Origin: Salinivirgaceae bacterium
GTDB lineage: Bacteria; Bacteroidota; Bacteroidia; Bacteroidales; SZUA-534
DNA: 56,350 nucleotides
NCBI GenBank assembly: GCA_024405635.1
Contig: JAKSOL010000021.1
Span: 1 to 56,350 of the forward strand
Reading direction: 5' to 3'
Under the pieces are notes generated by a model. It was not told where the DNA came from. It was given only the letters and a program-made list of their open reading frames with translations, and searched no databases. The position numbers were made by a program, and so were the translations under genes. Shown here piece after piece: positions 41,616 to 56,350 of this stretch; positions within the stretch are counted from its first letter, which is position 1, and each line of letters opens with the position of its first letter.

Positions 41616-42011
41616 GGGGTTGACATGGTTTTGACAGCGAGATGAAGTAATATGTAAGCATGTCGGGAGTAGTGAATCTGGCCCGTTAATCCCAGGCGCA
41701 ACGCTATAACTGGCGAATATAACTACGCTCTTGCAGCCTAGTCGAAGTATAGTAGACTGGCATAATTTCGGCTCAAGGAGCTGAAACAAGACATCTCCCG
41801 GAAACCCATGTTCTGAGGTTCATCGAACAGGAGGTGCAGCAAATCGGAACTGGCAGGAGGCGGCCTCGAGCCCGATGCGAGATTTAGAGGATAAGGATAT
41901 GGTGGGTGGTTTGGATCCAGCCGTATCTCGAAAATTAAGTCCAAACTAAGCATGTAGAAAGCTTATTGTTTCCTCGTTTGGACCCGGGTTCGAACCCCGG
42001 CAGCTCCACAA
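41616..42011 (+). ncRNA. ssrA: tmRNA
   Basis: 5' GGGGTTGA..GGTTTTGAC, tag ORF GEYNYALAA* at 41712-41741, T arm GGGTTCGAACCCC, acceptor CAGCTCCA; promoter box TATTTTTG at 41597-41604. Confidence 0.96.
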
Positions 42012-43379: not shown

Positions 43380-43757
43380 ATGGTCACCCAAAAGAATAGA
43401 GGCGGCTGCCCAAGATTGCTGAAAGGCAAAAAAGGCTTCACACTGCAATTCTGCGTTAACGAATCCCAGATGAAGTTTCTAATTGACCAACTTGAACGCT
43501 CACACTATCATAGTCTGAGCGAGTTGGTGAGGGATATGCTGTTTAATCGACAACTAAAAATATTAACAGAAAGTGCTTGCCAACGGGAACTTTTGCGAGA
43601 ATTGGCAAAAATTGGTGCTAACATCAACCAAATAACCCACAGATGCAATGTTGACGCCATAGGCGGCACAACATCTCGATTGCATATATCGGATAAGTAT
43701 ATCATTAACAGCGCCCGCAAGGCAATTGATAATGCTCTTAAGAAAGGATTGTTATGA
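43380..43757 (+). CDS. mobC: MobC-type relaxosome accessory protein
   Basis: RELAKIGANINQI motif; ATGA overlap with the relaxase. Confidence 0.85.
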   Translation: MVTQKNRGGCPRLLKGKKGFTLQFCVNESQMKFLIDQLERSHYHSLSELVRDMLFNRQLKILTESACQRELLRELAKIGANINQITHRCNVDAIGGTTSRLHISDKYIINSARKAIDNALKKGLL

Positions 43758-45199
43758 TTCCCAAAATCAAATCAGGTAAATCATTTGGCGGCCTTGTCGG
43801 GTACAACGAGAAGAAGGTTGCTATGGGCATGGCGGAACTTGTTGGTATTGAGAATATTCCATCGCCAAATGCCATAAAAGAAACGTTGGAACAAGTCGCT
43901 TCATTCAATCCCCTTTGTCTGAAGTCGACCTTCCACGTTTCACTGTCTTTCCCTCCAAACGAAAGGACGCTTGACAATGCAACGTTGCAAGCTATTGCCA
44001 ATGAGTTCATGCATGGCATGGGCTATCAAGACAACCCCTATGCCATATACAGACATTACGACACTGACAATCAGCACATTCATATTGTATCAACAAGAAT
44101 TGACTGGCACGGCAAGCGTGTAAGCGATTTTCAGGAACGGCGCAAGGCAGGCAAACTTGCGACGGAAATAGAAAGGAAATACGGACTAGTTGAAGTTGAG
44201 CGGAACAAAAAAAGCAAGAAGGAAACACAGGCTCGTAGAATAAAACCAGGGCCCGCCGATAAAGCCAATGTAAGACAGCACATTATAAATGCGATTGCCA
44301 CTTGTTTGGAAATGAAGGATATAACTTCTGTCGATGATTTTGACGAACGCCTTAAAGATTATAGCGTCGGCATAAGAATTAGCGATAAAAAGACTGTCAG
44401 TTATTTCATCATTGACGAAAACGGGCGGCAGGCAACACCAGCTGTTTTAGCATCGGCAATACCATTCAAGCCAACATATCGAAGGCTGGGCAACGTAATC
44501 GGAAGAAACAAAAAACTAATCACGTTGCAGCGGAACGAACTGAAGCGGGAATTCAGTTGGCTTCATAATTATTCTGCTGTTCGGCAAGAAACTTTCGACA
44601 AAGTTCTTACAGATAACCATCTCAAAATCAAGTATGCAGAGAATTCCGGCGGAATATATGGTGTCAGTTTTATCGACACAAAAAACGGAGTTGTTTTCAA
44701 AGGTGGCGATATAGATTGTCCGTACTCATTTTTGAGAGAAATACTTTCGGGGAGGATAACGATAAAGAAGGGCAATGAGCAAGCTTTCATTGAGAAATGC
44801 TACCGGGCTTTGATTGAAGCGAACAATCACCTTGACGAAAAGGATTTGCTTATAAAAGAAGAGTTTAGGGATTTGTTCTACGACCAGATAAGGCGGTCCA
44901 CAAATGGCACTTTTGCCCTTTCATATCAGAAAGCGGCTGACGAATATATCGAAAGCCGTAAAGCGGTAATCGAAAAGACAGAGCGGCAAAAAAATGACGG
45001 CATAGGAATATCCATTAATGATTCTCACCACGCTTCGATAGTTGACACCATCATAGATTCAGTTCAGAAAACTGGCGGAGGCTTGTTAGGCAATTTAATG
45101 CCTGCGGTCCCTGCTCCGCAAAAAGGCGTCGTGCAGAATGACGATGATGAAGATGAGGAAACGAGAATCAAAATATTATTGGGCAAATTAATCAAGTAA
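43754..45199 (+). CDS. Relaxase (MOBP-type)
   Basis: GKSFGGLVGYNEKK, HVSLSF, HYDTDNQHIHIVSTR His motif. Confidence 0.92.
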   Translation: MIPKIKSGKSFGGLVGYNEKKVAMGMAELVGIENIPSPNAIKETLEQVASFNPLCLKSTFHVSLSFPPNERTLDNATLQAIANEFMHGMGYQDNPYAIYRHYDTDNQHIHIVSTRIDWHGKRVSDFQERRKAGKLATEIERKYGLVEVERNKKSKKETQARRIKPGPADKANVRQHIINAIATCLEMKDITSVDDFDERLKDYSVGIRISDKKTVSYFIIDENGRQATPAVLASAIPFKPTYRRLGNVIGRNKKLITLQRNELKREFSWLHNYSAVRQETFDKVLTDNHLKIKYAENSGGIYGVSFIDTKNGVVFKGGDIDCPYSFLREILSGRITIKKGNEQAFIEKCYRALIEANNHLDEKDLLIKEEFRDLFYDQIRRSTNGTFALSYQKAADEYIESRKAVIEKTERQKNDGIGISINDSHHASIVDTIIDSVQKTGGGLLGNLMPAVPAPQKGVVQNDDDEDEETRIKILLGKLIK

Positions 45200-45927: not shown

Positions 45928-48201
45928 ATGAGAAAGATTACATTCATTAGCATCGTCATGGTGTTGGCGGTGATTAACACTCATGCGGCAGACGCATGGG
46001 AAGGCGCCATGGAAGAATTCACAGAAGGTGATGGCAGCAAAGAGTCGCCATATATTATTGGAACCGCTAACGAACTGGCGTTTATGTCGTATGTTGTTAG
46101 TGCCGGAACACAGGGATTTGATACTTTGCACTATAAACTTATTGCGGACATCGACCTGAACAATCAACCGTGGTTTAGCATTGGCGAGGCAAGGAATCCG
46201 TTTAAAGGTGTTTTTGACGGCAACAACCACACCATTTCGAATATGAATGTTGCTGACAGTTCGGCTGAAACACGCAGTATCGGATTATTCGGGTATTCGA
46301 GCGGTGCAACCATAAAAAACATCACTGTAAAGGGTATTGTAAAATCAAAAAGAAGCAAATCAATAACATCCTATTGTGGCGGTATTTGCGGTTATGCGAA
46401 AAACACGGTATTTTACAATTGCCACAATGAATGCATTATTACTGACAATGCGGCAAATGAAACGCTGTTTGAGTGTATCGACAGTTCCTTTGTCGGCGGG
46501 ATTTGCGGTTATGCTGAGAAATCGGATTTGGCTTTCTGCCACAACTCCGGGGCTCTGTCTACCGAATCGGTCACTGAAAACACAAATGAGTCAATACTAC
46601 ATGTTGGTGGTATATGCGGCAAAGCAAACAACACCCGAATCAAATGCTGCTGCAACAATTCGACCATTTTGGTTAAATCTGCTCAAACAAGCGATTACAT
46701 AACTTGCTATAACAGAACCTATCACTATGCTGGTGGCATTTGTGGTTGCATGAGCAATAATTCTGATATCAGTTCGACTTACAATGTTGGCAAATTAACA
46801 AACAACTATCTGTCGGCAAGAAATGGCAATGACATGCCTTCGACAAAATACGCTGGCGGCATTTGCGGCTTTGCCAACCAGTCGTCGACCACAACAAACT
46901 CGTCGTTTGAAGAGCATTGCTGTGAGTCAAGCACATACGGTGGTACAAAAACCAATGCCAATAGTATGCAGACAAACGCTTTTATCATGACACTAAACAG
47001 CGAGAATCCATGCGCGTTTGTTCCTGACAATCAGTCGCAAAACGGTGGTTACCCGGTATTGAACACCATTTATGAAATCATAACTGAAACGAAAGCCGGC
47101 GAAGGAATAACCGTTAATGGCGCTGATTTTTTCAATGGTAAAGAGATTACAATCAAAGCACATCCCGCTGTTGGCTATCATTTTGTAAAATGGACCGACG
47201 GCAACGATATTACTGACAGTGTGCAGAATATCATCGTGTCGCGCGACAGCGTTTTTGGTGCGATTTTCGAAATCAACCAATATACGGTTTCTGTTGATTT
47301 TAATGAAGGCATGGGCACAGTTTCGGGGGCCGCCGAATACAATCACGGCGATACCGTCAGCCTTGTGGCTGCAGCGAAGATTGGCTATAAGTTCGCAAAT
47401 TGGAATGGCGGCATTCAAGTTGATTCAATCAGTTTCATTATAGAAAACGACACCACAATAACCGCTAGTTTCGACAAGTTGTACAAAGCGTCTGCGGCCG
47501 CTAGTGACTCTGCCAAAGGTTTTGTTGCAATTGCCGGACTTGACAAAAACGGATTCTGCGGGAAGGATTCTGTTGTCACTTTCACGGCAAATGCCAAAGC
47601 GGGATTCCGTTTTGTGAAATGGACCGACGGCGATACTGCAAATCCACGTGCAGTCAGCATAAAATCAGACACCACACTGAATGCTTATTTTGCCAAATGC
47701 CATACTGTTACGACATTGTCGGACAATGAGTGGGGATATGTTGAAGGCGGTGGCATATATGAGCACGATTCCACAGCTCTGCTGCTGGCAGTAGCCACAC
47801 AATATGTGACTGGCGGATTCGGATTTCTGAAATGGAACGACGGCAACAGAGAGAATCCGCGCAGGATAACTGTCACCAAAGACACTTTGCTTGCCGCAAT
47901 TTTTACAACGCATGATACTGTTTATGTGCATGATACGACATACATCCATGATACCATAAACGTTGCTTCTGTTACCAGCAAAGAAGTGATTGACGTCAGC
48001 ATTTATCCAAACCCGACCATATCTTTTGTCAATGTGAGCGCTTCAAAGTTCTTCTCATATATTCTGACCGACGCTCGCGGTGTGGTGCTTAAGCGTGAAG
48101 ACGAGAACACTTCGTTCATCATTGATATGTCGGAATATGCTGACGGAGTATATTTTATTACCACATCGGACGGCATTACGCACAAAATTGTGAAGAATTA
48201 A
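45928..48201 (+). CDS. T9SS-secreted surface protein with GLUG-like repeats and InlB-B-like repeats
   Basis: Signal peptide, GDGSKESPYII, FKGVFDGNNHTISN, five GGICG repeats, GYxFxxWxDG repeats, HDT linker, SIYPNP...GVYF...KIVK C-terminal sorting domain. Confidence 0.88.
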   Translation: MRKITFISIVMVLAVINTHAADAWEGAMEEFTEGDGSKESPYIIGTANELAFMSYVVSAGTQGFDTLHYKLIADIDLNNQPWFSIGEARNPFKGVFDGNNHTISNMNVADSSAETRSIGLFGYSSGATIKNITVKGIVKSKRSKSITSYCGGICGYAKNTVFYNCHNECIITDNAANETLFECIDSSFVGGICGYAEKSDLAFCHNSGALSTESVTENTNESILHVGGICGKANNTRIKCCCNNSTILVKSAQTSDYITCYNRTYHYAGGICGCMSNNSDISSTYNVGKLTNNYLSARNGNDMPSTKYAGGICGFANQSSTTTNSSFEEHCCESSTYGGTKTNANSMQTNAFIMTLNSENPCAFVPDNQSQNGGYPVLNTIYEIITETKAGEGITVNGADFFNGKEITIKAHPAVGYHFVKWTDGNDITDSVQNIIVSRDSVFGAIFEINQYTVSVDFNEGMGTVSGAAEYNHGDTVSLVAAAKIGYKFANWNGGIQVDSISFIIENDTTITASFDKLYKASAAASDSAKGFVAIAGLDKNGFCGKDSVVTFTANAKAGFRFVKWTDGDTANPRAVSIKSDTTLNAYFAKCHTVTTLSDNEWGYVEGGGIYEHDSTALLLAVATQYVTGGFGFLKWNDGNRENPRRITVTKDTLLAAIFTTHDTVYVHDTTYIHDTINVASVTSKEVIDVSIYPNPTISFVNVSASKFFSYILTDARGVVLKREDENTSFIIDMSEYADGVYFITTSDGITHKIVKN

Positions 48202-49925
48202 AAATCTCCGTTCCAGTGGCACTTGCCATCGGTGCGCTTTATGCCGCAACTGAAGTTGTAGGTGTAGGTCAAATTGAGAGAGTATTGCGGACTGCCGGGT
48301 TTTGAGTTATTGGTAAGTGCCGAATAATTCAGATTGACATTGTGGTGCTCCAGAAACGAGTAGTCGAGCGTGGCGCGCAAGTTAGTAATGGCATAGTCGG
48401 TTTCCGATTTCACAGTGTTGTAGGTTGCAGAAAAACTGGCCCTTAGATTCTTTACAAACGAATTGCTCAAAGTGGCACTATAGGTAGCCACATCGGTTTT
48501 CTGCGGTGCAGCATCGGTGCGGTTGAAGTTAGCCGACAGTGACAGAGTCGTCTTTGAGTCGGAATGCGAAATTTGATACGACAGGTTCAGATTGTGAAGG
48601 CGCGTATCAGTAAAATCATCGCTATACTTCTGCTCATGCGACGTTTTCTGGTAACTGTAACTGGTAGATATGGTTTGTGATAATGCTTGCGGGTCGCCGA
48701 AAGTGTAGCTGGCGGTGCCGTTGGTGCTGAAGTTTAACTCTGTGTAGCTCAGCGTATCAAGATTCTGATACTGATTGGTCTCCGTGGCTTTCTCAACAAC
48801 ATCTTTTATATAGACATACGACTGGATATTCGACACCGAACCGCTAAGTGACAGTCTTTCGATTGGTGCCAGCTGCAGCCCGACATTATAAATAGCCTGC
48901 GTGTTGGTGTTCACTTCCTGATTTTCAAGATTGTCGCGCTGATAGCCCACACTGCCGCTAATGTTGGCAAATTTGCCTATCCGTGCAGCAAAGTCGGCAG
49001 TCAGATTTCGGAAATCATCGGTGTTGTAGTACGAGCTGAAAGTGGCGTAATTGGGCGACACTTGCTCATACGACACGCCCAACGTGCCGAAGCTGACCGA
49101 TTGGTTTGCCGACACCTTGAAAGCCTGATAGCGATAGGTGTCGTCGTCTTTTGACAGAATGCCAGGCGACAAGTTGGTGCTGTCGTCTTTCGAACAATTG
49201 TTGTCGATGATGCTGGTGGCGTACTGGACCGATACGGTTGTGGCTTCGAAGGGGTGCGCATTGACAGTCAACCCCAACGCCACATTACCTTTCGGCGCAA
49301 CATAGTTCGTATCCGACCTGTCGGGCGAGATTGAGTTCTCAATATCGGCAGAGCGCACCGCATTGACGCTGACATCGAACATATCGGCCTTGTAGCCAAT
49401 CATCATGCCACCGCTCATGCGCCTGTAAAGGGGTTGCATAAGAGTGCTGTCGAATTCAACAGCCTTGTTGAACCTTCCGTAATAGGCGCTGAACGACAGC
49501 GGGAAATCGGGCGGTGTGAGTTCTACGCCGCCGCCCATAAACTCACGTCCCGACATTGTGTAGGGCGAGAACGACATTGTTGAGTAGCCTATGTAGGTTT
49601 TTATCCACCGATACGACGGCGCTAACGAAAATCTGTTGAACGGATAGGCAATTGTTGACGCATACTCGTTGTTGGTGTACGAGAAACTCATCGGAACTGA
49701 CACAACTCCGAAAAACGTTGTATTCAGACTGCCTGACAGATAATAGGAATAAGGCAAGTTGGTTTTCAAAGAGTCTTTGGGCCATGTGAAAATGTTGCTC
49801 ATGGTTATGGCGCCAGAACTTCTCCACGGGTCGGCTTTCACAACCTGCTCAACATCCTGCGCTTGTCCGCCTACAGCCCATGTCAGGACAAGAAGAATCA
49901 GTATGAATCGGATTTGCCGGTTCAT
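48198..49925 (-). CDS. Outer-membrane beta-barrel protein of unknown function
   Basis: Signal peptide, many amphipathic strands, terminal Phe; coupled to the FN3 gene (5-bp gap). Confidence 0.75.
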   Translation of the reverse strand: MNRQIRFILILLVLTWAVGGQAQDVEQVVKADPWRSSGAITMSNIFTWPKDSLKTNLPYSYYLSGSLNTTFFGVVSVPMSFSYTNNEYASTIAYPFNRFSLAPSYRWIKTYIGYSTMSFSPYTMSGREFMGGGVELTPPDFPLSFSAYYGRFNKAVEFDSTLMQPLYRRMSGGMMIGYKADMFDVSVNAVRSADIENSISPDRSDTNYVAPKGNVALGLTVNAHPFEATTVSVQYATSIIDNNCSKDDSTNLSPGILSKDDDTYRYQAFKVSANQSVSFGTLGVSYEQVSPNYATFSSYYNTDDFRNLTADFAARIGKFANISGSVGYQRDNLENQEVNTNTQAIYNVGLQLAPIERLSLSGSVSNIQSYVYIKDVVEKATETNQYQNLDTLSYTELNFSTNGTASYTFGDPQALSQTISTSYSYQKTSHEQKYSDDFTDTRLHNLNLSYQISHSDSKTTLSLSANFNRTDAAPQKTDVATYSATLSNSFVKNLRASFSATYNTVKSETDYAITNLRATLDYSFLEHHNVNLNYSALTNNSKPGSPQYSLNLTYTYNFSCGIKRTDGKCHWNGDF

Positions 49926-49930
49926 GTGTG

Positions 49931-51979
49931 TTATTTTATAGCTTTAATTTCACTCAATATCGATTCGCCACCATCGGTATACACCGCCTTTACCGCATAG
50001 CGGTACTTATGGCCGGGTGTGGTCTGTGCGTCGGTATAACTGCACTGCCCGACATTGTCGTAAGGCTTCAGGGGTTCGTCGTCGGTGGCGCGGAATACCA
50101 CGTAGTTCGCCACATTTTTAACCGATGGTGTCCACTGCAGACGCACTTGCCCGGCGTCGTGCTTGACAGTGAGCGCTATGTGCTCAACAAAGTCGAACAC
50201 AAACCGCTGCGGTTCCGACGGTTCAGAGCGGTTGCCCGACTCATCGACAGCCACAACCTGATAGACATAGATGCCGGTGGTTGTCAGAGTACTGTCGGAC
50301 CATTCGCTGATTGTGCCTTGCGGAACTGTCTTAACATCGGTATAAGCACTGTCGGCCAATGCTTTGCGCATTACGGCATGAGCGGCGACATCGGAACTGT
50401 TGCTGGCCACCCAAACAAGTTTCGGAAATCCGCCTGAAACGGCAGTTATCGGTCTGAGCACCGGCGATGCGGGCGGTATGGTGTCTGGGCGGGTAAGCAC
50501 AAGTGTCTCCGACGGCTCCGAAAGGTTGTCGCGCACATCGATAGCCCGCACCTGATAGTACACCTTGCGTGTCAGTGTGTTCAGATTAACACTGGTGTAA
50601 AACACCGTGTCTTTGATTATTGAGTTGGACAGCAATGCGAACTCCGTGTTGGGCAGGTTCGACGTGTAGACGCGGTAGCCGTTCAAATCGCTTTCGGTGT
50701 TGGCTCGCCAACTTATTGTGGCTATTCCGGTGGTGTCGATTTCGCCATGCAGCGCAACAGGCGGCGCAGGCGGGAAACTGTCTATCAGCCCCACGTAGGT
50801 GACGTAGGGCGATAGCCTCTCAACATCGCTGTTGTAGGCCGAAACCTTATAGTAGTTGGTCATTCCGGGCATCAGGTCGGTGAAATGGCGCTGACGCGAA
50901 TCGGTGCCTTCAAAAATCTTGTGCAATCGTTGGTTTGGTCCCGACTGCGAATAGACGCGAAATCCAAATACGCTCGACTCAAGGCTATCAGGAAAATACC
51001 ACTCCAGCTCAACGTTGCGATTGTCGATAACATTATAGTTGACAATGGTTGGCGCCATATCCAGCGGTGGTGCGGCACACGCCTCAACCGAATCTGACGG
51101 CTGGCTTATGCGCCCGAAACAGTCAACTCCGCGAATGCGGTATAGAAATGGCACGTTGTTGACCGGCAGCGAGTCAGTGTAATAAACCATATTGGCACTG
51201 CGCGGCGAGTCGCCCGTAATGCTGACAACATTCTCATCAGACAGAGCCTGGAATGTGGCGCCCCCGTCGTCGGAACGCTCAACAATGTATGCGGTGTAGT
51301 AGTCTCTCATAATTGTAATATCCCATTGCAGGTTGACGGCAAGGTTGCCGCTTCGTGCTTCGGGTGCCGGTAAGTTTGCCATTGGTGTCTCAATGCCGGG
51401 ATTCACAAAGTCCATTGCGGTGTCCTGCCTGATGGTGTCGGGCAGATTGGCCAAAAAGACATGATACAGATACTTCTCGTTTTTGTTCACGCACGTATCG
51501 GTATACATCAACCCCGACAATTCGGCGGCTTTGGGCGACATGTCGGCGGCGTAGAGCGCAAAAGCGAAGCGCTGCTGCTGCTGACGATACTGCTGATAGA
51601 TGGCACGGGCTGTTGACGCCGCAGTTGACGTTTCCACCTCGCCATAGAGGCACTCTGCGGCAATGGCCACATACTTGTCGTTGGCAAAGGGTTCCCATTG
51701 GGCAAGTGGAGCAACCTTGACATGAGCTGTAAGAATGTTGGCCGGATTCTGAATCTCTTCGGGTGCAAGCACCTCGCCGCTGCGCAGTATGGTGTAGCGC
51801 TTAATGGTGTAGCCCATGGTGTCGGCAATGTGCCACGTGGCATAATCGGCGGGCGCCCAACGCAGCACCACACCACTGCCCGTCACGCAGTGGCGCATTT
51901 TTGTGGTGTAGGTTTGCCCCACGGCCGTGCCGCATGCTACGCACAGCATTATGAGAATTAGTTTTTTAAGGTTTGGCAT
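49931..51979 (-). CDS. Secreted multi-fibronectin-type-III protein
   Basis: Signal peptide; repeated W...Y..YR...Y.Y.V.AVD..GN.S..S FN3 pattern, DSFPPAPP and DTIPPASP linkers. Confidence 0.85.
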   Translation of the reverse strand: MPNLKKLILIMLCVACGTAVGQTYTTKMRHCVTGSGVVLRWAPADYATWHIADTMGYTIKRYTILRSGEVLAPEEIQNPANILTAHVKVAPLAQWEPFANDKYVAIAAECLYGEVETSTAASTARAIYQQYRQQQQRFAFALYAADMSPKAAELSGLMYTDTCVNKNEKYLYHVFLANLPDTIRQDTAMDFVNPGIETPMANLPAPEARSGNLAVNLQWDITIMRDYYTAYIVERSDDGGATFQALSDENVVSITGDSPRSANMVYYTDSLPVNNVPFLYRIRGVDCFGRISQPSDSVEACAAPPLDMAPTIVNYNVIDNRNVELEWYFPDSLESSVFGFRVYSQSGPNQRLHKIFEGTDSRQRHFTDLMPGMTNYYKVSAYNSDVERLSPYVTYVGLIDSFPPAPPVALHGEIDTTGIATISWRANTESDLNGYRVYTSNLPNTEFALLSNSIIKDTVFYTSVNLNTLTRKVYYQVRAIDVRDNLSEPSETLVLTRPDTIPPASPVLRPITAVSGGFPKLVWVASNSSDVAAHAVMRKALADSAYTDVKTVPQGTISEWSDSTLTTTGIYVYQVVAVDESGNRSEPSEPQRFVFDFVEHIALTVKHDAGQVRLQWTPSVKNVANYVVFRATDDEPLKPYDNVGQCSYTDAQTTPGHKYRYAVKAVYTDGGESILSEIKAIK

Positions 51980-51982
51980 GGT

Positions 51983-52675
51983 TTAGTTGGTTTTATCACG
52001 TTCCATATCCTCTGCCATCTTGCCAAAGCGAGCTTTTAGAATTTCTTTGGCCTTGTCTAAGCCAAACTGCAAATTTGACTTTCTTCTTCTATCTGGAATA
52101 TATTTTGAAAGAACCCACTTGCCATCTTTCAGTTTATATTCTTCTACTGGCGCATTATCCTCAGGTCCCCAATCTGGTCGTTCTATGCCATCGTCACCAA
52201 CAGCTCCACCATCGGCATAAAGATGCTCTTGCCTTATATAGTAAAAGAACACATCAAAATATACTTCCACTTCATCACTTAGTGCTTTTTCTGTCATTCC
52301 GGATTTTATTTTTCGAATAAGCTCATTATGAAGTCGCCATTGTATATGACTGAATTTCTTTGTGTTACATATTCTTGAAACAGTTGTATCCTTAGGCAGT
52401 AAAATCATAAATCCCAGACCTCCGTTTTCATATACTGCGTTATAACCTTTTGACAAATAGTTCATCTCTAAAGAATCTGTCAATGGCACTGCTTTAGGCG
52501 TAAATTCTCCGCTTTTAGTCATGGTTTTGTAACTAACGTCAAAATGGATGCTTACACTATCATTTACAGTACTTTCGGAGCGCACTGAATCTTGTGTCTC
52601 TCCATCCTTTTGATTAGATTGACACAATGTCAACCCCACCATAATTGCTAAAAGAATCTTGTTCATATTATTCAT
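51983..52675 (-). CDS. Candidate immunity protein 3 (possible lipoprotein)
   Basis: AT-rich, signal peptide ending LTLC; start overlaps the stop of the duplicated toxin tip. Confidence 0.6.
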   Translation of the reverse strand: MNNMNKILLAIMVGLTLCQSNQKDGETQDSVRSESTVNDSVSIHFDVSYKTMTKSGEFTPKAVPLTDSLEMNYLSKGYNAVYENGGLGFMILLPKDTTVSRICNTKKFSHIQWRLHNELIRKIKSGMTEKALSDEVEVYFDVFFYYIRQEHLYADGGAVGDDGIERPDWGPEDNAPVEEYKLKDGKWVLSKYIPDRRRKSNLQFGLDKAKEILKARFGKMAEDMERDKTN

Positions 52676-52760
52676 CTTTTATGATTTTTGTTGCTTCTGA
52701 TGTTGTAAATCCAAAATGCATAGGATCTATCTTTTTACTGAATGTTCCGCCCCATTGTAT
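52662..52760. repeat. 99-bp direct repeat, copy 1 (98/99 identical to 54374-54472)
   Basis: Aligned by eye; offset 1712; single difference 52738 C vs 54450 T. Confidence 0.95.
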
Positions 52761-52790
52761 CGCGCCCACTACACCACCACATTTCACCAT
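52668..52790 (-). pseudogene. Toxin C-terminal remnant mini-ORF (40 aa)
   Basis: MVKCGGVVGAIQWGGTFSKKIDPMHFGFTTSEATKIIKDE*; the last 30 aa duplicate the 643-aa ORF end with one change. Confidence 0.7.
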
Positions 52791-52846
52791 GCAAATTAAC
52801 CTATACTCCGAATATAGTAGTCTATGTCGAACGTGGCAAAAACTGC

Positions 52847-53545
52847 TTATTTACTATACGGCAACTTCAAACCCTCTGGCAATACGAAGCCATTATCTTC
52901 CAACTTAGACAGATACCTATGCCTTGTACAGCCCTCGCCATTACCCTTTGGATAACTTCCTGTGTTTTTGACTACAAATTCTATCTCCCACTCAGTGGCA
53001 TTTAATACACTATCCAACTGAGTCTCGAGAACATAATCTTCTGCCGGACTCCTGCTTTTATCACACAACTTCTTATCTATTGTAATGTCCCAATATTTTC
53101 TAAATTCTTCAACATAACAATAGTTGACAATTACGCGTTTCCCGCTTTCCGACGAGCCCCATCCTTCTGTATATACATTCATATATTCCTCTTCCAAACA
53201 TAATTTACCGTCCTCAAAAAAAGCACGCACATATTTTACAAATCTTGATTCATCGGTATCGCAATCACCTATCAATCTGTCCAAACGATGTTCCATTAAC
53301 ACTAAATCATCATTCTGGAAATAGCAGAAAAGAGTATCGGGCTTTTCGTAGTCTATGTAACACGAAGTCTCATCTACATATTGCATATTCAAAGGAAATT
53401 TCACAACAAGGAAATCCTTCCTATGATTTAAGACATATTCTCTATACTCATCAATGTGATTTATCTTCACGGTTAATGAATCCTGAGCTGAGGCAACTTG
53501 CATCACACTTATTGATGCAAAAATCAAACTAAGTAATCTATTCAT
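52847..53545 (-). CDS. Candidate immunity protein 2 (secreted)
   Basis: Signal peptide ...VASAQD; starts 2 bp after the stop of a toxin-tip remnant. Confidence 0.6.
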   Translation of the reverse strand: MNRLLSLIFASISVMQVASAQDSLTVKINHIDEYREYVLNHRKDFLVVKFPLNMQYVDETSCYIDYEKPDTLFCYFQNDDLVLMEHRLDRLIGDCDTDESRFVKYVRAFFEDGKLCLEEEYMNVYTEGWGSSESGKRVIVNYCYVEEFRKYWDITIDKKLCDKSRSPAEDYVLETQLDSVLNATEWEIEFVVKNTGSYPKGNGEGCTRHRYLSKLEDNGFVLPEGLKLPYSK

Positions 53546-53547
53546 AA

Positions 53548-53739
53548 TTAAGGATTATTTGTCAAGTATTGTACTAATTCTTTACACAAACCGAAATGCA
53601 TGGCATCTATAGAACTGCTATATGTTATACCTGCATCAAGGGGCAACTTTTTACCAAGTATTCTTTGACTGACTATTTCATGAGCATATTTAAATGCCTC
53701 ATAAACCTCGGGTTCAATATTACAGAAACCATCTCGCAA
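53548..53739 (-). pseudogene. Diverged toxin C-terminal remnant (63 codons)
   Basis: LRDGFCNIE...IDAMHFG aligns with LYDGFCNIE...IDPMHFG of the 643-aa ORF; begins immediately after the preceding stop. Confidence 0.75.
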
Positions 53740-54387
53740 TCATTCCTTATACTTTTCTATAAGAGTTTTTATTTCCAACAACAATGAACTGCATTCTAAA
53801 TAATTAAATTCAATATTTTTTATGGTTTGTGACAAAGTTTCAGACTCTGCCGATGGACAATTGTATTCTTTTTTCAACGATTTTATACACCCTCCACTCT
53901 CATCAAAATAGAACCTATATTCTGATGTCGGAAACGACCTAGTATCAAAGTCAAACAATGAAGATTGAGAATCACGAACATATATGAAATATATGCCAGA
54001 AGAATCATAATAACACTCCACTAATTGTGTGGTATAGGTATCGTTATTATCTAACATCCCATATATTTCAATTTTTTTTAGGATGTTGTCTGGTTTTCTA
54101 TAATAACGAGTAATTCTCTTCTTATAACCGTATCCATCTGATCCCTCCAAACTGTAATCTTTATAGTAATCATCAAGACCTAATATCGGATTATAGTATT
54201 CATATGAAAAATCAATTTCTTTTGTTTCATACATATGGCTATTCAATCTATAATCTATTGTGTACTTTTTGTATGCATCTTTAATGTATGCAATCCGACT
54301 TGTAATGCTATTATTTTGTTGTGACGTTGCACTTATGTAACAAATAGCACAAATAGACATTATCAAAATCCTTTTCATATTATTCAT
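53740..54387 (-). CDS. Candidate immunity protein 1 (secreted, cognate to the 643-aa ORF)
   Basis: Signal peptide; start overlaps the toxin stop (ATGAATAA); AT-rich. Confidence 0.65.
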   Translation of the reverse strand: MNNMKRILIMSICAICYISATSQQNNSITSRIAYIKDAYKKYTIDYRLNSHMYETKEIDFSYEYYNPILGLDDYYKDYSLEGSDGYGYKKRITRYYRKPDNILKKIEIYGMLDNNDTYTTQLVECYYDSSGIYFIYVRDSQSSLFDFDTRSFPTSEYRFYFDESGGCIKSLKKEYNCPSAESETLSQTIKNIEFNYLECSSLLLEIKTLIEKYKE

Positions 54388-54472
54388 CTTTTATGATTTT
54401 TGTTGCTTCTGATGTTGTAAATCCAAAATGCATAGGATCTATCTTTTTATTGAATGTTCCGCCCCATTGTAT
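54374..54472. repeat. 99-bp direct repeat, copy 2
   Basis: Covers the toxin 3' end plus the MNNM start of the next gene. Confidence 0.95.
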
Positions 54473-56311
54473 TTTGTCATTAGAGTTAATAAACGCATCG
54501 ATGATTTCTTTCTCGATATTACAAAAACCATCGTACAATAAATTATTACCAAATCCTATATTAGAAATACCTTTCTTCAAATTAAGGCCAAAAGTTGACA
54601 TGGTTTCATTTGGGAAATTGATTTGAAAATTTTCTTTAAATGATTTGATTGATGTTTCAAATTCAAGATACTTATCATAATTCAAACTATCGTTTACAAA
54701 ATTCATATTTAATATTTGATTTAAATCCACAAATAAACATTCTCCCTGTAAAACAGCACTATTTTCATTAACCATACTTCTAAGATAATGAGGAATAATA
54801 TTTTGGACCTTTTTGAGATTTTCCACAATATTTTTTTTACCGTTATGAATACCAGATAACATGAAGGTACTATCTTTTATAAAAGATATCATTTGTTTTA
54901 AATCATACAAACTAACATTATTAATATCAGATTCATACCGATTTATAGCGTCAAAATCATTAATCAACGTATCTATTGGCACGTTCTCAAATTTTGTTAC
55001 AAACTTTTCATGTGCATTTTTTATTTGGTCTACAGTTTTTTTTGAGCCGATATCAAATCCTGTCATTTGTTTAATGTAAAAAACAACATATATATTACTT
55101 CCTAAAATTTGAGGGTTTTTCCGTGGCAAAAAGTCGATAGCCATTCCTAATCCATGTTCACTGATTTTATTTGTACCATTAGGATCGTTCATGACACGCA
55201 TGCTCATAGCACCTATATTGTTCTTATATTTTGCAACAACTTCATTATAAGAGCCGGCATCGATTAATGATTGTTGCACATTATCTAATACTTCTGCAAA
55301 TTTTTTGTGTACATATAAATTTTTCTCTAAAAATGTTATGTTAGTGAAATTTTGTTTGATCCATTCAAACGGGTTCCCAAATCTTTGAATCCCTTCATAT
55401 GTCATATATATATCGCGAATATTTTTATATGAATCATATCTTTTTTCATCTGTTTGTCCTATAAGAAATTTATGCATATCTGGATATTTAACCCATTCCA
55501 AAGCAGCACCTTGCAAGATATTGAAAGTTGTGTCTACAGATGTTGAAATATACATCAAGCTATCACCTGATATTGCCTGATACAATAAGTCCTTAAATTC
55601 CTTCCATGATCGTACATCTAAAATTCCATCTATTTTCTTTCCACCAACCAACGACACACTAACCTTATATGGTCCATCTTCATACGAGATCGATTGTTTT
55701 TGCTCTTTATCCTTAAAACCATTCCATGTTAGTGAAGCATTGTTATCGGCTTTTTGCTTGGTTGTATGAACTATATTACCCAAGCTGTCAGCAACAACAA
55801 GTATAACTTCAAAATTTTCATTAGGATACTTTGCAATGATTCTCTGCGTACGTTCATCAAGAGTGTATTCTATTTCCAATTCACCAACACAAGGAGCAAA
55901 AGCATCGTTAAGTTTAGTAATTGACAAACTGATACTATCCTTATCGGCAGTTGCAATCATCTCACTCTTCTCCTCATCCGCCAAGAACCCAAACAACCCG
56001 CTGCCATGTTTTTCGTGCATCCAAGTCCACTGCTTGTGGTTCAAGGCTGTGCCACCATTGTAGTCCATTAAATTGTCCGTTGAGTACTGCGGTGCACTAA
56101 AACTCTCTGTTTCAGAAGAAAAAGTATGGTGCAACCCAAATGCGCCGTGGCCTAACTCATGAGCCACATATTTGGCGGCTGGCACGCCAAACAGAAATCC
56201 GTGCTGTCGGCCAATTGGCATATAGCCTGCCAATATATCTTTCATTGGCGTGCCATCTTCGTTAAGGCGCGTAACATTGTCAACTACAAACAAATAATAC
56301 CCATTGTGCAT
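54380..56311 (-). CDS. Putative polymorphic-toxin cassette: zincin (HELGH) stub + Ig-like domain + M15-family peptidase tip
   Basis: HELGHGAFGLHH...NLMDY near the N-terminus; SEHGLGMAID and WGG...DPMHF M15 motifs; no signal peptide; in-frame TGA at 56315-56317. Confidence 0.7.
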   Translation of the reverse strand: MHNGYYLFVVDNVTRLNEDGTPMKDILAGYMPIGRQHGFLFGVPAAKYVAHELGHGAFGLHHTFSSETESFSAPQYSTDNLMDYNGGTALNHKQWTWMHEKHGSGLFGFLADEEKSEMIATADKDSISLSITKLNDAFAPCVGELEIEYTLDERTQRIIAKYPNENFEVILVVADSLGNIVHTTKQKADNNASLTWNGFKDKEQKQSISYEDGPYKVSVSLVGGKKIDGILDVRSWKEFKDLLYQAISGDSLMYISTSVDTTFNILQGAALEWVKYPDMHKFLIGQTDEKRYDSYKNIRDIYMTYEGIQRFGNPFEWIKQNFTNITFLEKNLYVHKKFAEVLDNVQQSLIDAGSYNEVVAKYKNNIGAMSMRVMNDPNGTNKISEHGLGMAIDFLPRKNPQILGSNIYVVFYIKQMTGFDIGSKKTVDQIKNAHEKFVTKFENVPIDTLINDFDAINRYESDINNVSLYDLKQMISFIKDSTFMLSGIHNGKKNIVENLKKVQNIIPHYLRSMVNENSAVLQGECLFVDLNQILNMNFVNDSLNYDKYLEFETSIKSFKENFQINFPNETMSTFGLNLKKGISNIGFGNNLLYDGFCNIEKEIIDAFINSNDKIQWGGTFNKKIDPMHFGFTTSEATKIIKDE

Positions 56312-56350
56312 TATTCAAAAAACTAAGGATTTTAAACTATTAATGTTTCT

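Follow-up and report, generated by a model that had tools for sequence, protein, structure and literature searches.

The DNA considered here is contig JAKSOL010000021.1 (assembly GCA_024405635.1) of a Salinivirgaceae bacterium, and the genes at its right-hand end probably form the tail of a polymorphic toxin locus of the TANFOR type together with an accessory cluster that includes an outer-membrane beta-barrel. By the window we mean the whole stretch of 56,350 nucleotides (nt) that was analysed, which is the entire contig C14 of a genome of 2.66 Mb in 36 contigs with about 40% guanine plus cytosine (GC). We consider it likely that the toxin tail, the accessory cluster and a proposed mechanism of delivery belong to one explanation, which draws directly on the anatomy of the locus, the pattern of conservation across the toxin family, the junction at which toxin tips are exchanged, and the synteny and co-occurrence of barrel and toxin genes. 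In the proposed mechanism the toxin would reach the periplasm via Sec, and its TANFOR-like head would engage the barrel, which would pass the stalk or anchor it at the surface. The zincin module would then cut the tip free, and the freed tip would degrade the cell wall of neighbours that do not have the immunity protein. The window itself is a decayed example with spent immunity genes, and its value is that of a pointer, not that of a working system.

The genes in question occupy positions 48198-56311 as a single co-directional run on the minus strand, in which the gaps between genes measure -8 to 5 nt, save for one gap of 171 nt around the second tip remnant (52655-52760). Read in the order of transcription, the run contains a protein of 643 amino acids (aa), open reading frames (ORFs) of 215, 63 and 232 aa, a 106-nt repeat, an ORF of 230 aa, a protein with FN3 repeats (the FN3 protein) and the barrel. 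An ORF and Pfam scan located on the minus strand all eight elements named in the original prediction, which had been made from the sequence by eye. The contrast in composition noted there (stub, FN3 and barrel genes richer in GC, tip and small ORFs rich in AT) agrees with the computed GC, which is 0.45-0.56 for the FN3 and barrel genes, 0.43 for the stub and 0.25-0.40 for the tip and small ORFs, with a genome value of about 0.40. The signal peptides of the three small ORFs were called by eye and not computed. The features of the run are as follows.

48198..49925, minus strand: outer-membrane beta-barrel (ORF, 575 aa; the AlphaFold2 (AF2) model is all-beta)
49931..51979, minus strand: secreted FN3-repeat protein (682 aa; Pfam fn3, E 2.7e-14)
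51983..52675, minus strand: orphan immunity candidate, 230 aa (ORF; lipoprotein-like signal with LTLC, by eye)
52655..52760, minus strand: remnant of the 3' end of the M15 tip fused to the start of the next gene (duplicate of 54367-54472)
52847..53545, minus strand: orphan immunity candidate, 232 aa (ORF; signal peptide by eye)
53548..53739, minus strand: 63-aa tip remnant, from the C-terminal end of another allele in that M15 tip family (D-x-M-H motif kept)
53740..54387, minus strand: cognate immunity candidate, 215 aa (ORF; signal peptide by eye; 8-nt overlap with the toxin stop)
54380..56311, minus strand: 643-aa protein with HELGH/NLMDY and Peptidase_M15_4 (ORF and Pfam)
54383..55960, minus strand: variable tip, residues 118-643, predicted as an Ig/FN3-like sandwich (about 123-267) and an M15/LAS zinc peptidase with a long helical insert
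55961..56311, minus strand: HELGH zincin module, residues 1-117 (conserved last part of the trunk; junction for recombination)
56299..56350, no strand: end of a dispersed, unassembled repeat, which truncates the carrier gene and supplies its ATG

A complete toxin carrier opens with a Sec signal, and its head, TANFOR-like plus FN3, takes up about 300 aa; some 500 aa of further stalk follow, then a zincin module of roughly 110 aa and an exchangeable C-terminal tip. The genome has eight HELGH modules, distributed over contigs C4, C8, C14 and C29 and followed by differing tips (DUF5675, C39_2, M15). Most of these modules head stub-tip ORFs, among them ones with DUF5675 and Peptidase_C39_2 tips; two carriers are full-length (C8:57616-62421, 1601 aa, and C4:5285-9157, 1290 aa), and the carrier on C29 (C29:10891-13230, 779 aa) is cut by the contig end. 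A phmmer search with residues 1-950 of the C8 carrier against 1.84 billion cluster representatives returned 1944 matches at E<=1e-3 and 365 at E<=1e-30, and nearly all full-length alignments stop at query positions 908-947, mostly at about 923-930, in proteins whose lengths range from 1150 to 3486 aa. The consensus of 37 aligned carriers is blank beyond 'QDEEExE'. Scans with Pfam and NCBIfam recognised a C-terminal domain in eight of 34 full-length homologues (DUF5675 twice, M15_4, Reprolysin_5, ADP-ribosyltransferase, M23, PGAP1 lipase and M43) and none in the remaining 26, and they placed an fn3 domain at about 290-360 in 18 of the 34. Endonuclea_NS_2, intein/HINT, BgtA-like and M23 domains are further tips among the homologues.

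Thus the domains behind the HELGH module vary, and no constant C-terminus is kept. The arrangement that had been proposed from this one locus (a conserved trunk with variable tips, secreted ORFs lying downstream, and orphan cassettes) is seen across the homologues and within the genome. As had been judged by eye, no Rhs/YD, VgrG, PAAR, haemagglutinin or POTRA family was returned by any Pfam or NCBIfam scan. Polymorphic toxins in the sense of Zhang et al. 2012 combine a conserved trunk with unrelated C-terminal toxin domains, as these carriers do, and orphan tip and immunity cassettes with homology at the junction are also present here (eight modules and two remnants); on its sequence the locus can be classed as a polymorphic-toxin locus. 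A short form of the carrier seems to exist as well, which starts at about trunk residue 500 with a signal peptide of its own and lacks the TANFOR-like head and FN3 domain (C29:10891-13230 and C23:186265-186558 of this genome; proteins P0020 and P0046). Debris of the system lies at a third place of the genome, C23:186265-187183, where a 111-aa N-terminal fragment of a paralogue of the FN3 protein (42% identity) adjoins a 97-aa fragment made of a signal peptide and trunk residues 520-568 (73% identity).

[quoted passage not shown] We found TIGR02542 matches in 21 of 30 trunk homologues, located at the N-terminus (about 25-175) and mostly spanning nearly the whole of the 145-position profile, with scores of 17-42 bits against a cut-off of 67 and E values from 0.0055 to 6.6e-11. 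These matches indicate remote homology of the trunk N-terminus to the TANFOR profile at scores below those that the curated model asks of its members, and the window copy has no N-terminus at all. The neighbourhoods are also of the TANFOR type, with SprB-repeat giant proteins, the FN3 protein in all eight loci of relatives, and a T9SS cargo gene by the barrel. In a sample of 400 Bacteroidota genomes (trunk match threshold E<=1e-5) none had a protein above the TANFOR cut-off, and the trunk was present in 19. Seven places in the sample gave sub-threshold TANFOR matches: three lie beneath trunk matches (G279:C17, G089:C6 and G431:C1:812053), a fourth lies beneath the trunk fragment L028, and three are without a trunk match (G279:C17:41390, G279:C20 and G323:C7). 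Going by the N-terminal matches, which are sub-threshold, and with none of the 400 genomes past the cut-off, we regard the trunk and TANFOR families as one superfamily that is mostly invisible to the curated model. The trunk family is thus far larger than that model sees (1944 cluster representatives against 0 of 400 genomes above the cut-off), and surveys of antagonism in Bacteroidota would for this reason undercount it.

The original prediction had supposed a distinct delivery class without earlier description. This part has to be given up, because the N-terminus of the trunk is a sub-threshold relative of the TANFOR domain and that class was published in 2020 (PMC7073777); judged by profile similarity, the class is the published TANFOR kind in the broad sense and is not categorically new. 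Among the literature searched for the whole word TANFOR, Jana et al. 2020 alone has it in the abstract or more than twice in the text. The main text of that paper contains neither 'metallopeptidase' nor 'HExxH', and its three uses of 'outer membrane' all concern the T9SS; the invariant zincin at the swap junction and the linkage of barrel and toxin genes are not in that main text.

The zincin module has the signature A-H-E-L-G-H-G-A-F-x-L-x-H-T-F ... N-L-M-D-Y ... Q-W and closes in an acidic D-E-E-E-G-E. Across 161 aligned modules H51 and H55 are kept in all 161, E52 in 160 and H62 in 157; N80-L-M-D-Y84 is kept in 145-158 (with M82 within a range of 149-161) and Q94-W95 in 145-151. Conservation stops after the acidic stretch at about residue 117, the same edge that the consensus of the 37 carriers shows. 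Since the third histidine stands at HExxH+7, compared with +6 in metzincins, we call the module zincin-like and not a textbook metzincin. The single family that it matches, TIGR03952, scores 15-21 bits where the cut-off is 208, and its AF2 fold is of low confidence. The invariance of the H, E, H, H positions and of NLMDY at 22-50% overall identity points to selection for catalysis and not to DNA homology alone, which argues for an active peptidase. According to the part of PMC3482391 drawn on here, releasing peptidases, zincins included, placed just before the tips are an established feature of polymorphic toxins, and by analogy the module may release its own tip.

The same data can be read in another way, namely that the module is a recombination handle or structural joint, or acts on the target cell (for example in entry of the tip), and that the tip stays on the stalk. 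We think this quite unlikely. It is true that the HExxH+7 spacing of the module departs from the classical metzincin motif, and that nucleotide identity between paralogues is concentrated in the module, as expected of a recombination handle; set against these points are the catalytic residues and NLMDY turn conserved through the 161 divergent sequences and the published precedent for zincins in this position. As a peptidase that would free the tip, an invariant zincin at the swap point offers a second experimental handle on the mechanism, beside the barrel discussed below.

The copy of the carrier in the window is truncated at its 5' end, and its ATG does not mark the natural start of a gene. 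In frame with this stub ATG, a TGA occurs two codons 5' of it, and the first four codons of the stub derive from the flanking repeat. The terminal 52 nt of the contig recur identically at the ends of C15, C25 and C35 (both ends) and nearly identically at one end of C31. The stub is 92.6% identical at the nucleotide level to C4:6486-6823 over 340 nt (window 55960-56299) with no homology beyond; the homology begins exactly at the edge of the repeat (56299) and stops at 55960, which corresponds to residue 117. Across the assembly there are two types of contig end, both terminating in ...TAATGCACAAYGG and resembling inverted termini, and past ...TAATGCACAAYGG the flanks are unrelated and non-coding, C14 excepted. 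The repeat interrupts the assembly at a dozen contig ends at least (C1, C3, C7, C11, C15, C25, C31, C32 and C35 among them), and one internal copy is present as a solo end of about 55 nt in intergenic DNA at C32:~122350-122410. Neither the interior of the repeat nor any transposase is in the assembly, and the missing 5' trunk of the stub is on no contig end. We considered whether a plain insertion sequence (IS) had entered an intact gene, and rejected this: a transposase was not seen, the internal copy is a solo end only, and no contig end carries the 5' trunk. For these reasons we speak of a dispersed repeat with IS-like termini and not of a proven IS. It had been noted that the full-length toxin gene is not in the window, and this is the case, as the contig ends in the repeat and the full-length carriers are those on C4 and C8. 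The truncated copy may still be expressed.

The tip of the window copy is a candidate zinc-dependent M15/LAS peptidoglycan peptidase. Peptidase_M15_4 (PF13539) matches the 643-aa protein at 32.9 bits against a gathering cut-off of 25, and S384-x-H386-x-x-G389-x-A-x-D393 and D625-x-M627-H628 are invariant in all eight aligned tips, including H386, D393 and H628, which we take to be the M15/LAS zinc ligands. The whole tip of 525 aa is 68% identical to the C-terminus (903-1427) of the full-length 1427-aa carrier P0001. The AF2 model of the 643-aa protein is moderate, with a predicted local distance difference test (pLDDT) score of 69.5; residues of about 129-224 form a confidently modelled beta-sandwich, and there is a long helical insert. 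A search of fold space with this model covered only the beta-sandwich (residues 123-267, window 55511-55945), so that the M15 domain was barely tested; the top match was the C-terminal domain of PorU, a T9SS component, at Z 9.1, from which we draw no conclusion because many unrelated Ig-like domains tie within 1 Z. Comparison of the 643-aa protein with PDB sequences gave 0 matches at E<=1, and Foldseek with the model gave none at E<=0.001 and antibody-like Ig matches only.

Two scraps of earlier tips remain downstream. The 106-nt direct repeat, 52655-52760 and 54367-54472, is 97% identical and spans the final 30 codons of the tip together with the opening seven of the next gene; by tblastn the remnant at 52655-52760 is 96.7% identical over tip residues 614-643. 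The other remnant (53548-53739) shares 76% identity with the C-terminus of the stub-tip protein P0049, 62% with the full-length toxin P0015 and 37% with the resident tip. Each of the two remnants precedes an extra small ORF, and we therefore see in them the footprint of earlier tips displaced, more than once, by recombination within the zincin module. By their position the three small ORFs would encode periplasmic immunity proteins, and the tip would be a toxin neutralised by the product of the gene downstream. The three candidates have no similarity to each other, no Pfam or NCBIfam family and no paralogue in the genome, and the loci of relatives that were examined contain no homologue of any of these candidates, of the tip or of the remnant. 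A pattern search for loci related to the tip gave 60 pattern matches, of which 0 were confirmed.

An M15 protein might also serve on the surface or in secretion as a hydrolase for remodelling of the cell's own wall, feeding or predation, with the small ORFs as unrelated lipoproteins and no interbacterial weapon involved. In its favour, the three small proteins are mutually dissimilar and match no known immunity family, and homologues of the tip are rare (two beyond itself in a word-indexed search). We nevertheless hold this alternative to be very improbable, given that the same trunk bears nuclease, ADP-ribosyltransferase, lipase and several peptidoglycan-hydrolase tips, that tip scraps before each extra small ORF are the signature of displaced pairs of toxin and immunity genes, and that experimental validation in E. 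coli is reported for one pair of tip and immunity protein from the TANFOR class (PMC7073777). A toxin tip with its immunity genes is the reading that we retain.

The barrel has no Pfam or NCBIfam family. Its AF2 model, built with 66 homologues, has about 26 strands and no periplasmic domain (pLDDT 82.2, predicted template modelling score 0.72). The best fold match is MtrB (6r2q_B; Z 19.6, root-mean-square deviation 4.6, 443 residues aligned; Foldseek E 1.3e-9, TMq 0.54), followed at Z 17 by generic porins and TonB-dependent barrels. The protein is not a TpsB/Omp85 barrel by its features: there is no POTRA or Omp85 Pfam match, the strands number about 26 compared with 16, and the periplasmic domain is missing. 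A search for homologues found 178 at E<=1e-10; the 120 of them that were listed have no Pfam domain, and where they are named it is mostly as 'hypothetical protein'. In loci L029, L030, L031 and L034 (families f24 and f21) the barrel ORF has 817-825 aa, about 250 aa more than in the window's family, and the extra part is C-terminal to the matched region in three of them and N-terminal in L031.

The barrel and the toxin family co-occur and are syntenic far beyond chance, both among relatives and across the phylum, as had been anticipated. Among 40 relatives the barrel is present in 12, the trunk in 10 and both in nine; in seven of these nine the two genes lie on the same contig and strand, 7-17 kb apart, and the sole relative with the trunk only has merely a stub. 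In the 400 genomes the barrel is present in 58, the trunk in 19 and both in 18 (Fisher p 1e-15, a value that overstates the association because kin are not independent). In 14 of these 18 genomes, which represent seven families, the barrel and trunk genes are direct neighbours (<1 kb): 13 have the barrel gene immediately upstream in the same orientation, and one has a barrel fragment downstream. In the other four genomes the genes are about 2-6 kb apart in three, as estimated from match coordinates, and far apart in one. The ORFs were checked in 10 of the 14 adjacent cases, and G062, G091, G236 and G316 are known from match coordinates only. Five of the 10 loci read have the order barrel, HELGH toxin, small ORF, and one has a HELGH toxin followed by a barrel fragment. 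In two (L025 and L026) the barrel is followed by a TANFOR-like head fused to a body like that of p1490, a protein of the accessory cluster described next, and then by the FN3 protein, and in two it is followed by giants of 2497 and 4016 aa with the same head. As the head follows the barrel on toxins, on p1490-like fusions and on giants, what stays constant beside the barrel is this head of about 300 aa.

The FN3 gene likewise co-occurs with the barrel, as had been foreseen: in the loci of relatives it is directly adjacent to it in five of eight and within 5 kb in all eight, and an FN3-like gene is present in three of the 10 phylum-level loci. The gene order in relatives is FN3 protein, barrel, the proteins that we call p300 and p1490, SprB-repeat giant, toxin and small ORFs; the SprB repeats are found in the giants, and the giant directly precedes the toxin in G001 and G011. 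In the genome under study the pieces are scattered, with p300 directly upstream of the C4 carrier, p1505 and a giant of 2747 aa on C12, and the start of a carrier gene in the final 55 nt of C12. Going by this conserved gene order, the FN3 protein and the barrel, which has no plug, are assigned to an accessory cluster with p300, p1490 and the SprB-repeat giant. In a phmmer comparison the HELGH carriers have no similarity to the p950-p1500 family, and the head alone is common to both in some lineages. Atlas annotation gives the FN3 protein only as 'FN3 domain protein' and p300 as 'hypothetical', with faint HEAT-like leads. By protein size alone, the FN3 protein and p1490 might conceivably correspond to SprC and SprD of the Flavobacterium sprCDBF operon. 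As to composition, three of the accessory genes stand well above the genome's 40%: that of the FN3 protein at 0.50-0.56 GC, that of the barrel over much of its length (up to 0.54) and that of p1505 (C12:201532-206049); in G004 (L017) the FN3 and barrel genes are likewise GC-rich against their own genome, and in other relatives genes of the FN3, barrel and p1505 types match the local GC (0.31-0.37). The high GC of the accessory genes may reflect recent transfer of the accessory cluster into this lineage.

For the exit of TANFOR-type toxins from the cell, the main text of PMC7073777 went no further in 2020 than speculation about the T9SS. An unannotated barrel gene linked to the toxin head across at least seven families is a possible exit route and makes export experimentally approachable. 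We tentatively propose, as a possibility below even chances, that the barrel and the TANFOR-like head of about 300 aa constitute an outer-membrane route of export or display in Bacteroidota that has not been described before. Such a route would be two-partner-like without POTRA and independent of a T9SS signal; adhesin-like giants and toxins would both use it, the zincin would free the tip of the latter, and the FN3 protein, p300 and p1490 would be further parts. The earlier suggestion that the barrel and FN3 proteins serve in toxin delivery has gained comparative support from co-occurrence and synteny; its mechanism, the export and the display are matters that we carry forward as conjecture. 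Contact between head and barrel was modelled with ESMFold2 (barrel residues 22-575 and C8 head residues 35-330), which scored 0.32, 0.26 and 0.32 in three runs with a best control of 0.00 and returned the verdict 'weak support'. Of 157 solved complexes 116 come up to the tool's mark, as do 2 of 215 mismatches, and at <=0.60 the figures are only 18 of the 157 and both mismatches; in the modelled complex the pLDDT of the partners is at least 71 and the run-to-run agreement of contacts at least 0%.

Export could instead follow the T9SS, with the barrel, FN3 protein, p300 and p1490 serving the SprB-repeat giant adhesin and the toxin genes merely lying downstream or riding the adhesin, an account that strikes us as unlikely. 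The genome does encode the T9SS translocon SprA (2473 bits), the C12 giant ends in a weakly scoring sorting tail of type A (19.1 bits, with the cut-off at 23), the toxin gene in the window's family directly follows the giant and not the barrel, a detectable trunk is missing from 40 of the 58 barrel-positive genomes, and enrichment of SprB, Fn3 and Por_Secre_tail near TANFOR genes has been published (PMC7073777, main text). Other findings speak against it. T9SS sorting domains of type A or B (Por_Secre_tail, TIGR04183/PF18962; TIGR04131) were found in none of the six scanned toxin-family proteins of the genome (two of them full-length) and in none of 34 and 30 homologues, and a variable C-terminal tip leaves no room for a C-terminal sorting signal. 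In 13 genomes of seven families the barrel is immediately upstream of a gene with the TANFOR-like head whether a giant is nearby or not, and the heads fused to p1490-like proteins right after the barrel (L025 and L026) tie the head, and not the adhesin, to the barrel. We favour passage or anchoring by the barrel as the step that would follow Sec.

Several observations weigh against the overall explanation. The window copy is without signal peptide, head and stalk and probably without part of the peptidase fold, residues 1-125 of the 643-aa protein were modelled by AF2 at pLDDT <50, and the copy may be a silent reservoir cassette. The carriers of the genome fall under the TANFOR cut-off, the best being the C8 N-terminus (15.2 bits and E 0.027 against 67 bits), and none of them matches TIGR02542 at E<=0.01. 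The M15 call consists of a short Pfam stretch and motifs, and the PDB sequence and fold searches gave no confirmation of the catalytic domain. As regards the barrel, the genome has one, with at least three other toxin loci that have none, and the C8 toxin gene adjoins a 507-aa ORF that by eye resembles a tRNA synthetase. The immediate neighbours of the barrel in the window's family are p300 and p1490, with the toxin 7-17 kb off. Because 40 of the 58 barrel-positive genomes are without a trunk match at E<=1e-5, the toxin is not the only or main partner of the barrel. Finally, a complex score of the kind obtained for head and barrel is, in the tool's wording, 'more often wrong than right' unless the complex is likely beforehand.

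Other genes of the window were noted in passing. The toxin run lies downstream of a transfer-messenger RNA (tmRNA) gene at 41616-42009 (tag GEYNYALAA), and between the tmRNA and the barrel are a MobC/NikA-like gene (43380-43757), a MobA/VirD2 relaxase (43754-45199), an ORF for a Cys-rich protein of 142 aa and, adjoining the barrel gene, a T9SS-tailed surface protein with GLUG/InlB repeats (45928-48201). The region from the tmRNA to 48201 resembles a mobilisable island sitting at ssrA; an integrase was not seen between the tmRNA region and the contig end. At positions 2-2911 a 970-aa ORF with collagen triple-helix repeats (Pfam Collagen, four stretches, E 1.9e-26) runs off the left contig end. 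In the closest relative (G004, L017:2-4108) an ORF of 1369 aa with an N-terminus that by eye is Cas9-like adjoins the group of p300, T9SS cargo and barrel.

Compared with known systems, the carriers resemble TANFOR toxins in their restriction to Bacteroidota, their Sec signal, an N-terminal head often followed by Fn3, variable tips that include peptidoglycan hydrolases, nucleases and ADP-ribosyltransferases, immunity genes downstream, and neighbourhoods rich in SprB-repeat, Fn3 and T9SS-tail proteins; they differ in that the carriers of this genome are far below the model cut-off (15.2 against 67 bits). With the releasing peptidases of the part of PMC3482391 drawn on here, such as the PVC-metallopeptidase, they share a zincin directly N-terminal to an exchangeable toxin and proposed to free it; the signature there is HExxHxxQ-E, as opposed to AHELGHGAFxLxHTF...NLMDY...QW, the trunk is a different one, and the delivery context is that of extracellular contractile injection systems and Photorhabdus virulence cassettes (eCIS/PVC). 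The tip is like the M15/LAS peptidases (VanY-type D-Ala-D-Ala carboxypeptidases and phage endolysins) in its PF13539 score above the cut-off and its S-x-H-x-x-G-x-A-x-D and D-x-x-H motifs, and unlike them in that a helical insert of about 150 residues breaks up its fold. The barrel recalls MtrB of MtrCAB (6r2q), a wide, plug-less barrel of 26 strands that sheathes a partner in its lumen, which offers an analogy for a barrel that would hold the toxin head; there is no sequence similarity and the cluster has no cytochromes, and because generic barrels follow at Z 17 the likeness is one of size and shape and not of membership. The last comparison is with CdiB-CdiA two-partner secretion, from which the present system differs in the roughly 26 strands and missing POTRA of its barrel (CdiB is 49th among the fold matches, at Z 13.0), in having no haemagglutinin repeats, and in a junction formed by a zincin domain, while that of CdiA is a short VENN-type motif. 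What the two have in common is a barrel gene directly upstream of a long Sec-dependent protein with a conserved N-terminal module, a variable C-terminal tip with its immunity gene, orphan tip-immunity arrays and a conserved recombination junction before the tip.

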